A DNA stretch of 64,000 nt from the IMG/VR virus record IMGVR_UViG_3300043172_001413, one strand, 5' to 3'. The notes under the pieces are model-generated. The model did no database searches and was not told the DNA's origin. It worked only from the letters and a program-made list of their open reading frames with translations. This DNA comes from a virus. Position 1 is the first letter of the stretch, and every line of letters begins with the position of its first letter. The translations under genes were made by a program, and so were the position numbers. Positions 26,190-27,526 of this stretch are shown piece after piece.

Positions 26190-26783
26190 TTGCGAAAGGA
26201 TATTAAGGTGGGCACTTTTACTTCTCCCAACGTACTTATAGCAGTCACAGGCGGCATCGCTGCATATAAGATGCCTTCTGTTGTTAGTGTCCTTGTTGAT
26301 AAAGGATATGATGTAAAAGTTATGATGACAAAGGCAGCGGAACAGTTCATAACTCCTCTGACTTTCTCTGCACTATCTCACAATCCTGTTTATACTGAAG
26401 ACAGTCGATTTGCAAATGATGGCCATATACATCATATTGAACTGGCTGAATGGGGTGATGTTCTTGCAGTAGCTCCGGCTACCTATAATACGATCTCAAA
26501 AATAAAGCAGAAATTTGCTGATAATCTGGTTACTTCAACTGTGGCAGCGTTTACGAAGAAGATTCTGATTTTTCCCGCCATGAATGTTAATATGTGGAAA
26601 AATTTGCTTCTGGTTGATGAGGGTGATTACAGTCATATGATAAATACTGAGTCATTTGGTGCCCGTCACATTATCATTTATGAGCCTGCGGAGGGTAAAC
26701 AGGCATGCGGTGCAGTAGGTCCCGGTAAATTGGTAAGTACAAAAGAAATCGTTAAATTGATAATTCAACATGCAAAGGGGTAA
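26190..26783 (+). CDS. coaC: phosphopantothenoylcysteine decarboxylase-like flavoprotein (CoaC-type)
   Basis: NVLIAVTGGIAAYKMPSVVSVL ... PAMNVNMW match the CoaBC N-terminal flavoprotein domain. The true start may be internal. Confidence 0.65.
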   Translation: MRKDIKVGTFTSPNVLIAVTGGIAAYKMPSVVSVLVDKGYDVKVMMTKAAEQFITPLTFSALSHNPVYTEDSRFANDGHIHHIELAEWGDVLAVAPATYNTISKIKQKFADNLVTSTVAAFTKKILIFPAMNVNMWKNLLLVDEGDYSHMINTESFGARHIIIYEPAEGKQACGAVGPGKLVSTKEIVKLIIQHAKG

Positions 26784-26785
26784 AA

Positions 26786-27526
26786 ATGGGTAGTCTATCA
26801 GGAAGAAGAATAATGGTAACTGCAGGCGGAACCCGGGAATATATTGATGATATCCGTGTAATTACAAATGTCTCGACAGGTGCTTTGGGGGTAAAAATTG
26901 CCGAAGAATTATTTAAGAGAGGAGCAGAAGTCTATTATGTGTTCGGGAAGCAGTCATACCTCCCGAATCCGGCATATGGCATTGATTCTACTTCCAGGAT
27001 GTCTACCTATGGAATAGTGACCGTAGCTGACCTGATGGAGACGATGAAGGCCTTAATACAAGGTTTCAAAATTGATACTGTTGTTCATTCAGCTGCAGTC
27101 TCCGATTTTACTTTTAAGAAGACGAAAAATGTGAAACTCAGTTCCAGTAGTAAAGAGGATTTTATAGAATTTCTGAGAAAGACGATCCGAAGAACACCAA
27201 AGATTATAAAACAGATCAAGAAATGGCGGCCCGGAATAATTCTGGTCGGTTTCAAATTTACCGTGGGTAAGGGTCTTGAAGAAATATGTACAACTGCTTG
27301 TGCTGCAATAAAGAAAAATAATGCAGATATGATCGTTGCCAACGATAAGAAGGAAATGATCCGGTTAGGAACACATAGGGCGTATCTAATTGACTCCTCT
27401 GAATACATACGTGTATATAGTGATGTAATAAAGGATATACGAGGAGAAAGCAAGAACTATGTAGTAAGAGACGGTAAAGCTGACATTGCCCGAGGTATCG
27501 CGGACTTTTTAGATGGCTCTTTTTGA
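26786..27526 (+). CDS. coaB: phosphopantothenate-cysteine ligase-like (CoaB/DFP domain)
   Basis: RIMVTAGGTREYIDDIRVITNVSTGALG matches the CoaB consensus xTAGPTxEPIDPVRFISNxSSGKMG. Confidence 0.6.
   Translation: MGSLSGRRIMVTAGGTREYIDDIRVITNVSTGALGVKIAEELFKRGAEVYYVFGKQSYLPNPAYGIDSTSRMSTYGIVTVADLMETMKALIQGFKIDTVVHSAAVSDFTFKKTKNVKLSSSSKEDFIEFLRKTIRRTPKIIKQIKKWRPGIILVGFKFTVGKGLEEICTTACAAIKKNNADMIVANDKKEMIRLGTHRAYLIDSSEYIRVYSDVIKDIRGESKNYVVRDGKADIARGIADFLDGSF

Follow-up and report, generated by a model that had tools for sequence, protein, structure and literature searches.

A 64,000-nucleotide stretch of viral DNA (IMG/VR record IMGVR_UViG_3300043172_001413; hereafter the window) encodes homologues of phosphopantothenoylcysteine decarboxylase (CoaC) and phosphopantothenate-cysteine ligase (CoaB) of the coenzyme A (CoA) pathway. 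The two genes belong to a conserved four-gene module with an amidohydrolase-fold protein (AH2) and a two-domain protein (X), partners that a preliminary description of the pair had missed. The association of AH2 and a CoaB-fold/aldolase protein with CoaBC is common to phages and DPANN archaea and is the most interesting outcome of this work. We consider it probable that CoaC and CoaB are genuine and that, in the module with AH2 and X, they make 4'-phosphopantetheine for cofactor maintenance.

The CoaC and CoaB open reading frames (ORFs) are adjacent on the + strand and separated by 2 nt (Table 1), as first described, and profile searches bear out the family assignments of both. The upstream ORF matches the Pfam Flavoprotein family (PF02441, E 3e-27, 95.6 bits against a cut-off of 22.7) and the downstream ORF matches Pfam DFP (PF04127, E 8.4e-39, 133.7 bits against 22), in both cases far above chance. 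The CoaC ORF comprises 197 aa from a TTG start, while public gene calls begin 18 nt downstream and give 191 aa. It also matches the N-terminal half of the NCBIfam model coaBC_dfp (4.4e-52) and coaC_strep (4.8e-40). Alignment to AtHAL3a (PDB code 1e20), human PPCDC (1qzu) and M. smegmatis CoaBC (6tgv) reveals three retained motifs. The active-site histidine lies in HHIELAEW (LHIELRRW in AtHAL3a, with His90), the asparagine motif reads PAMNVNMW (PAMNTLMW in AtHAL3a), and the substrate-clamp cysteine, needed in this family to reduce the enethiol, lies in KQACGAVGPG (RLACGDYGNG in AtHAL3a). The His, PAMNxxMW and ACG motifs are present in all seven phage copies that were aligned. The clamp cysteine and the PXMNXXMW motif distinguish phosphopantothenoylcysteine decarboxylases from the LanD peptide decarboxylases. 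By these motifs and scores, the ORF is a CoaC homologue with the catalytic residues of the CoA enzyme.

The CoaB ORF (246 aa) matches the monofunctional NCBIfam models PRK06732 (4.4e-47) and coaB_strep (2.9e-41). Its closest solved structure is 2gk4 from S. pneumoniae (1.6e-26), followed by 5int, 4qji and 1u7u. The motifs GGTREYIDDIRVITNVSTG, AAVSDF, VKLSSS, PKII, GFK and ANDK show little or no variation among 31 homologues, and the segments at catalytic positions read DDIRVITNVSTG, SAAVSDF and NVKLSSS. Residues R24, N28, A104 and K117 are either invariant in the same set or shared by at least 90% of it; we take them to be equivalent to Arg206, Asn210, Ala276 and Lys289 of the E. coli enzyme (Kupke/Stanitzek). 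The only match of CoaB in PHROGs is weak and is to one family of unknown function. The ORF is a monofunctional CoaB ligase homologue nearest to the Streptococcus type. Both ORFs retain the residues on which catalysis by the CoA enzymes depends; CoaB and CoaC are new members of known families, and their initial identification stands. Their separation, which had been taken as unusual, is not: the closest solved relatives are monofunctional enzymes of the Streptococcus/Enterococcus type. Split CoaB and CoaC are usual in streptococci, enterococci and eukaryotes, and the coaB_strep and coaC_strep models exist because streptococci and enterococci have split enzymes.

AH2 presents the hallmarks of an amidohydrolase, namely a TIM-barrel fold, the HxH motif on strand 1, and His and Asp residues at metal or catalytic positions. 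It is strongly conserved, with 50-80% identity among its 120 best matches, some of which are archaeal by name. A tblastn search of GenBank phages returned only distant matches (21-27%), the IMG/VR scan with an AH2 profile gave no confirmed relative, and PHROGs contain no family for AH2, X, the MVP-like protein discussed below or the small ORFs. We could not assign a reaction to AH2, as its fold neighbors range over relatives of lactonases, decarboxylases, amide hydrolases and dinuclear oxygenases. In the window, CoaB and AH2 are separated by two lineage-specific ORFs. Neither has a Pfam, NCBIfam or PHROG match, and both are found only in the near-identical contigs L003/L004; they are missing in L007-L010, where CoaB abuts AH2. 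The module is contiguous in the related huge-phage contigs L007/L008 (CoaC-CoaB-AH2-X, with X immediately after AH2). Contig L010 has CoaC-CoaB-AH2, with genes overlapping or abutting there as in L007/L008, and L009 has overlapping genes in the order CoaC-AH2-CoaB. A Cas1 gene and a gene for a CRISPR-associated protein (L010 777-2113) lie about 5 kb upstream of the module in L010.

Protein X is encoded upstream of CoaC. The Pfam scan gave a weak Aldolase_II match and a sequence search against the PDB gave nothing useful; the fold search alone was informative. Protein X is predicted to join a divergent CoaB-fold N-terminal domain to a C-terminal domain of the class II aldolase fold (PF00596), in which the three-histidine metal site (His-x-His...Gly-His-Gly) is invariant. 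In 11 DPANN genome loci, full-length orthologues of X (E 1e-50 to 1e-87) are placed directly next to AH2 and CoaBC or between the two. The order in L074 (a 1.12 Mb contig) is AH2-X-CoaBC, and the X stop overlaps the CoaBC start. In L027 and L029 a true CoaB domain, Aldolase_II and a class I methyltransferase are fused in proteins of 628-665 aa (Rosetta-stone fusions). The methyltransferase, of the S-adenosylmethionine-dependent class I, occupies L027 8091-9977 and L029 7357-9354 in these DPANN loci as part of the fusion. It is a separate gene in the phage L007/L008 module (L007 13859-14626) and upstream of AH2-CoaB-CoaC in L042 (1505-2218); the window has no such methyltransferase near the module.

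The linkage seen in phages recurs in archaea. A scan with the AH2 profile, limited to one genome per species, returned 31 true orthologues, nearly all in metagenome-assembled genomes of Pacearchaeota, Woesearchaeota or Nanoarchaeia, including a 1.56 Mb scaffold. Hidden Markov model searches covering all fetched loci detect CoaB/CoaC, as a fusion or as split genes, on the AH2 strand in 37 of the 41 AH2 loci. For the genome loci alone, 27 of 31 have a same-strand CoaBC within a few kb, and most of these abut. We therefore reject the possibility that AH2 and X are chance neighbors, given the linkage in 37 of 41 loci and the domain fusions. A Nudix gene is present in six AH2 loci and a CoaD+CoaE fusion in four. 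The CoaD half of this fusion reaches 117 bits, above the coaD equivalog cut-off of 103, and the fused archaeal CoaBC of L016 exceeds the coaBC cut-off (260.6 versus 219.7); hence the archaeal AH2 cluster is a CoA cluster. Our literature search found no description of AH2-X-CoaBC clusters, of COG2159 linked to CoA, or of CoA synthesis in Woesearchaeota or DPANN. Nanoarchaeota have been reported to be without PoK and PPS, a gap that falls upstream of CoaB (PMC6650551).

Among huge phages the window is not an isolated case. The IMG/VR scan with a CoaB profile identified at least 22 loci; apart from one fragment, they lie on contigs that measure 51-536 kb. The genes also recur in the uncultured phages LR756500 (462 kb) and LR756501 (735 kb). 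CoaC lies within 6 kb of CoaB in 19 of the 22 loci; AH2 and X are present in none. A domain resembling M23 peptidases is found in 14 of the 22, either fused to the CoaC C-terminus, as in LR756501, or encoded by an adjacent gene. In this domain HxxxD is retained, as is the second His of HxH, and a Met replaces the first His. This tie of a zinc-peptidase-like domain to a CoA enzyme recurs in a different clade of huge phages. LR756501 encodes CoaB and the CoaC-M23 fusion and, at another site, a neighboring CoaD/CoaE pair that scores above the curated cut-offs, and so four of the five universal CoA steps. In LR756500, whose same region is L058 in IMG/VR, CoaB is directly upstream of an MVP gene and CoaC is not nearby. 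Phage CoaB and CoaC are thus recurrent among huge phages, with no CoaC family in PHROGs and no paper on phage-encoded CoaBC in the literature that we searched.

A mechanism can be proposed on this basis. CoaB would join NTP-activated 4'-phosphopantothenate to cysteine in the infected cell, and CoaC would decarboxylate the product to 4'-phosphopantetheine. The host CoaD and CoaE would convert 4'-phosphopantetheine to CoA, which would then donate the phosphopantetheine arm to host and phage acyl carrier proteins (ACPs). AH2 and X would most likely act just upstream of CoaB, because both are linked to CoaBC in DPANN archaea, because PoK and PPS are reported to be absent in Nanoarchaeota (PMC6650551), and because X has a predicted CoaB-like domain. 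There they may supply or recycle 4'-phosphopantothenate, bypassing the feedback-controlled pantothenate kinase. Beside the CoA genes the window appears to hold a complete Preiss-Handler route to NAD+, with PncB, a PncA-like protein, NadE and a MazG-NadD fusion. Given this neighborhood, the likely purpose of the module would be to sustain cofactor pools during a long infection. The NadD gene also matches CTP_transf_like and was considered as a phosphopantetheine adenylyltransferase (CoaD); this was rejected, since NadD models score 111.8 bits and CoaD just 18.8 bits.

Several observations weigh against this interpretation. CoaC remains under the NCBIfam equivalog cut-offs, with 137.3 versus 261.4 on coaC_strep and 177.4 versus 219.7 on coaBC_dfp, a model of which just half is matchable; so does CoaB, with 160.8 versus 265 on PRK06732 and 141.7 versus 217.2 on coaB_strep. 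The exact function of the pair is therefore read from motifs and context and is not certified by the models. In bacteria, neither CoaB nor CoaC catalyses a rate-limiting or regulated step, which makes it hard to see what a phage would gain from these steps alone. Neither PanK, CoaD, CoaE nor a phosphopantetheinyl transferase (PPTase) was found in the 64 kb window of the ~512 kb genome. The fold neighbors of AH2 (lactonases, decarboxylases and uncharacterised proteins) indicate no specific chemistry. X does not recognisably keep the nucleotide-binding motif found at the N-terminus of CoaB, which makes its predicted ligase activity uncertain. Lastly, X also occurs with no CoaB, CoaC or AH2 nearby. 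All 15 records of Lak Prevotella megaphages have a full-length homologue (30% identity; for example MK250016.1 357713-358765, L075 9980-11116) with none of the three within 10 kb, and in L073 (a 589 kb contig) X lies within an ACP-PncB-PncA-NadE island, so the function of X may not be tied to CoA. As a separate observation, the same 15 Lak records gave tblastn matches to a CoaD+CoaE query.

A stronger proposal, which we regard as tentative and rather unlikely, is that AH2 and X jointly constitute an undescribed route, or a recycling path, to 4'-phosphopantothenate that replaces PanK of bacteria and PoK/PPS of archaea. If so, both the phage module and the AH2-X-CoaBC operons in DPANN archaea would encode a self-contained 4'-phosphopantetheine pathway that escapes pantothenate kinase feedback. 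The CoaB-like domain of X would then be a second ligase forming an acyl-NMP, for example from phosphopantoate for condensation with beta-alanine.

The preliminary description suggested another role, in which CoaC and CoaB would supply the arm of the phage ACP and the ACP would modify a cargo protein or lipid associated with MVP. The ACP is genuine (PF00550, 2.1e-14, 54 bits; NCBIfam acyl_carrier, 93.2 bits versus a cut-off of 70.45; PHROG 5934, phage acyl carrier protein, 2e-19) and lies 6.0 kb from the CoaB end. Its stop overlaps the start of orf94 and the MVP-like gene follows 48 nt after orf94, so the co-directional ACP-orf94-MVP unit is real here, and this part of the description stands. 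In favor of a tie to the CoA genes, the order CoaC-CoaB-AH2-X-339 aa-methyltransferase-ACP is found within 5.5 kb in L007/L008, and MVP is directly downstream of CoaB in L001/L058. Comparison of loci leaves the functional link weak. The ACP is divergent from the NAPRTase gene (pncB) in the window, in L007/L008 and in L073, and it stays there in L007/L008 and L073, which have no MVP; an MVP at the ACP position is confined to the window lineage. Among the 22 IMG/VR CoaB loci, MVP is found in L058 alone and an ACP within 6 kb in none. Conservation therefore does not support a chain from CoaBC through ACP to MVP cargo. ACP arms also derive from CoA, so CoaD and CoaE would be needed too. Neither a PPTase (ACPS/Sfp) nor an ACP-dependent enzyme (KS, AT, adenylation or acyltransferase), both of which the description had raised, emerged when candidate window ORFs with a length of at least about 60 aa were compared with Pfam or NCBIfam models. 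We judge this role unlikely. An ACP is already known as a phage gene (PMC13573597) and phage MVPs have been reported (bioRxiv 10.1101/2023.11.10.566534). The MVP homologue of LR756500, of 827 aa and downstream of CoaB (L001 8675-11158), matches that of the window with a phmmer E of 4.7e-203. Near the MVP gene of the window are a second SPFH/Band_7 protein (38913-40154) and a PspA/IM30 protein (45563-46255); together with the shoulder, Vault_3 and SPFH-like domains of the MVP homologue, these suggest a membrane- or cage-forming set.

We think it quite improbable that the module is a counter-defence, rebuilding 4'-phosphopantetheine or CoA after the host immune system or a toxin has destroyed or sequestered the supply. 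Such a function would parallel NAD+ reconstitution by phages. The NAD+ genes beside the module could themselves be a reconstitution or counter-defence set, unlike NARP1 and NARP2, and the same island carries AcrVA2-like, Acb1-like and NADAR candidates for anti-defence genes. The AcrVA2-like assignment comes from the identical gene in L003; our Pfam scan of the window copy gave no match at E 0.01. The occurrence of two non-homologous partners of metal-hydrolase type, AH2 or the M23-like domain, in different phage clades is compatible with salvage or recycling, and Nudix genes are present in the archaeal operons. The M23-like domain, however, is without the first His of HxH, and the occurrence of this module in DPANN archaea points to housekeeping, either in biosynthesis or in salvage. 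Our literature search found no CoA-depleting defence system. To our knowledge, none has been described.

The scores under the equivalog cut-offs, the unusual partners (methyltransferase fusions included) and the presence of X in phages with no CoaBC nearby would also suit a ligase/decarboxylase pair acting on a substrate other than phosphopantothenate, that is, on another cysteamine-containing metabolite or a cofactor analogue handled with AH2, X and sometimes a methyltransferase. This is very doubtful, because the pair retains every residue that PPCS and PPCDC chemistry is known to require, the archaeal operons carry CoaD+CoaE, and the L016 CoaBC passes its equivalog cut-off. The weakest alternative, an extremely improbable one that the description had itself named, makes the upstream ORF a LanD-type peptidyl-cysteine decarboxylase for the maturation of ribosomally synthesized and post-translationally modified peptides, with the DFP protein unrelated to CoA; membership of the HFCD superfamily, a weak match to the CypD model (1.9e-4) and MrsD/EpiD alignments (1e-13 to 1e-9) speak for it, but it is largely refuted and was rejected on motifs and scores, since CypD reaches 20.8 bits against a cut-off of 215, the CoA-type models are better by E-value by factors of 10^30 to 10^45, PAMNxxMW and the ACG cysteine clamp are present, the CoaB gene is just 2 nt away, and scans of the window revealed no lanthipeptide synthetase or precursor-like genes.

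The source of the window is a huge phage of ~512 kb. A metagenomic contig of 512,380 bp encodes an identical CoaB protein, HNH endonuclease genes are interspersed among tRNA genes, and the nearest phage relatives by protein are LR756500 and LR756501. The tRNA genes number 26 (536-23755) and cover 14 amino acids, among them Phe, Leu, Ile, Lys, Ser and Cys, together with His, Tyr, Met, Arg, Gln, Pro and Asn. Many ORFs of the window belong to no known family, and megablast of the region against the GenBank phage collection gave no match. A scan for promoters and terminators found no more sites than are present in shuffled sequence and is therefore uninformative on operon boundaries. Genes of signalling type, unusual in a phage, are clustered at 36568-42249 and 46325-47503; they encode a VWA-like protein, a PP2C phosphatase (2e-16), a weakly Ser/Thr kinase-like protein (569 aa) and a ligand-gated ion channel resembling glutamate receptors (SBP_bac_3 and Ion_trans_2, 392 aa).

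Table 1 Predicted features of the window, and M23-like genes of other CoaB loci
Feature	Position	Strand	Basis or remark
Protein X, two-domain	24548-25723	+	ORF 391 aa; public records 377 aa from 24590
CoaC homologue (monofunctional phosphopantothenoylcysteine decarboxylase; FMN flavoprotein, HFCD family)	26190-26783	+	Profiles, motifs
CoaB homologue (monofunctional phosphopantothenate-cysteine ligase; Streptococcus/Enterococcus-like)	26786-27526	+	Profiles, motifs
Lineage-specific ORF between CoaB and AH2 (59 aa)	27586-27765	+	No family match
Lineage-specific ORF between CoaB and AH2 (203 aa)	27725-28336	+	No family match
AH2 (Amidohydro_2, PF04909; TIM-barrel metal-dependent hydrolase fold)	28329-29165	+	Likely start 28350 (MKKIDIHCHT)
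MVP-like protein (826 aa)	30752-33232	-	MVP_shoulder 1.1e-28, Vault_3 1.1e-6, Band_7 3.6e-6
orf94 (94 aa)	33281-33565	-	Start overlaps ACP stop
Acyl carrier protein, AcpP-like (76 aa; DSL phosphopantetheine-attachment serine)	33565-33795	-	PF00550, acyl_carrier
PncB (NAPRTase)	33978-35153		NF003704, 411.8 bits versus cut-off 379
PncA-like (278 aa; isochorismatase/nicotinamidase resemblance)	35662-36498		Weak: PRK11609 2.5e-6, LLVIDPQNDFC motif
NadE	42391-43314		TIGR00552, 113.6 bits
MazG-NadD fusion	47690-48577		TIGR00482, 111.8 bits versus cut-off 112.45
NADAR-domain candidate anti-defence gene	5191-5841	+	6.5e-20
AcrVA2-like candidate anti-defence gene	19310-20356	-	Annotation of identical gene in L003
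2H-phosphoesterase/Acb1-like candidate anti-defence gene	57855-58562	+	5.5e-8
HNH endonuclease ORFs (at least five)	5873-6457, 10902-11564, 12456-13073, 13944-14627, 22562-23164		Among tRNA genes
CoaC-M23-like fusion	L002 6913-8022; L055, L059, L063-L065, L067, L068		
M23-like separate gene beside CoaC	L005, L011, L051, L053, L057, L066		

CoA is found throughout life, and its biosynthesis is regarded as solved. The module now points to two strongly conserved, uncharacterised enzymes placed against CoaBC in a clade of huge phages and in DPANN archaea, lineages of which, Nanoarchaeota among them, are reported to lack the known enzymes for 4'-phosphopantothenate (PMC6650551), and the four-gene cassette is a clonable and testable candidate for the missing step or steps. 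The cofactors maintained by giant phages would be extended from NAD+ to CoA and phosphopantetheine. If the ordinary reading alone holds, that is, CoaC and CoaB making 4'-phosphopantetheine, the result adds modestly to the known auxiliary metabolic genes.

Comparison with known systems places the phage pair more precisely. The LanD enzymes (EpiD, MrsD and CypD) have the HFCD flavoprotein fold and the conserved active-site His in common with phage CoaC, but they act on peptides and have no ACG clamp cysteine, and phage CoaC scores far higher on CoA models. Bifunctional CoaBC (Dfp; E. coli 1u7u/1u7z, M. smegmatis 6tgv) performs the same two chemistries with the same domain families; the phage ORFs are unfused, each matches one half of the coaBC_dfp model, and the phage CoaB domain is nearer to the monofunctional type. 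The type III PPCS of Streptococcus/Enterococcus (2gk4) and the eukaryotic PPCS and PPCDC are likewise a separate ligase of ~230 aa and an FMN decarboxylase of ~180 aa, side by side. Their CoaB motifs GGTxExID.VR.I(T/S)N.S(S/T)G, AAVSD(F/Y) and K(I/L)SS match phage CoaB, and the His, PAMNxxMW and ACG of their CoaC match phage CoaC. The phage pair differs in being ~30-40% identical to these enzymes, under the equivalog cut-offs and borne by huge phages, and in being accompanied by AH2 and the CoaB-fold/aldolase protein, which are foreign to bacterial operons.

Phage pathways for NAD+ salvage or reconstitution (KVP40 NadV/NatV; NARP1 and NARP2, Osterman et al. 2024), in the account given in PMC13573597, also have cofactor genes clustered in an island, as here; the cofactor is different, and its CoA counterpart is a putative one. 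PoK and PPS of archaea and PanK of bacteria provide 4'-phosphopantothenate for CoaB, and AH2 and X sit at the operon position expected for this supply step, in lineages reported to lack PoK and PPS (PMC6650551); they have no sequence or fold relationship to those enzymes. A further parallel is found in the CoA clusters of DPANN archaea (L074, L016 and L012; AH2-X-CoaBC with or without Nudix and CoaD+CoaE), where the four families are in tight linkage as in the phage. The archaeal copies that were listed or scanned have identities to the phage proteins of 50-59% for AH2 and 42-46% for X, whereas the CoaB proteins are only ~30% identical, and the split archaeal CoaC copies that were aligned (L012, L014) have PxMH and no ACG clamp, unlike phage CoaC. 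These differences in CoaC and CoaB argue that the phage did not simply copy an archaeal operon.

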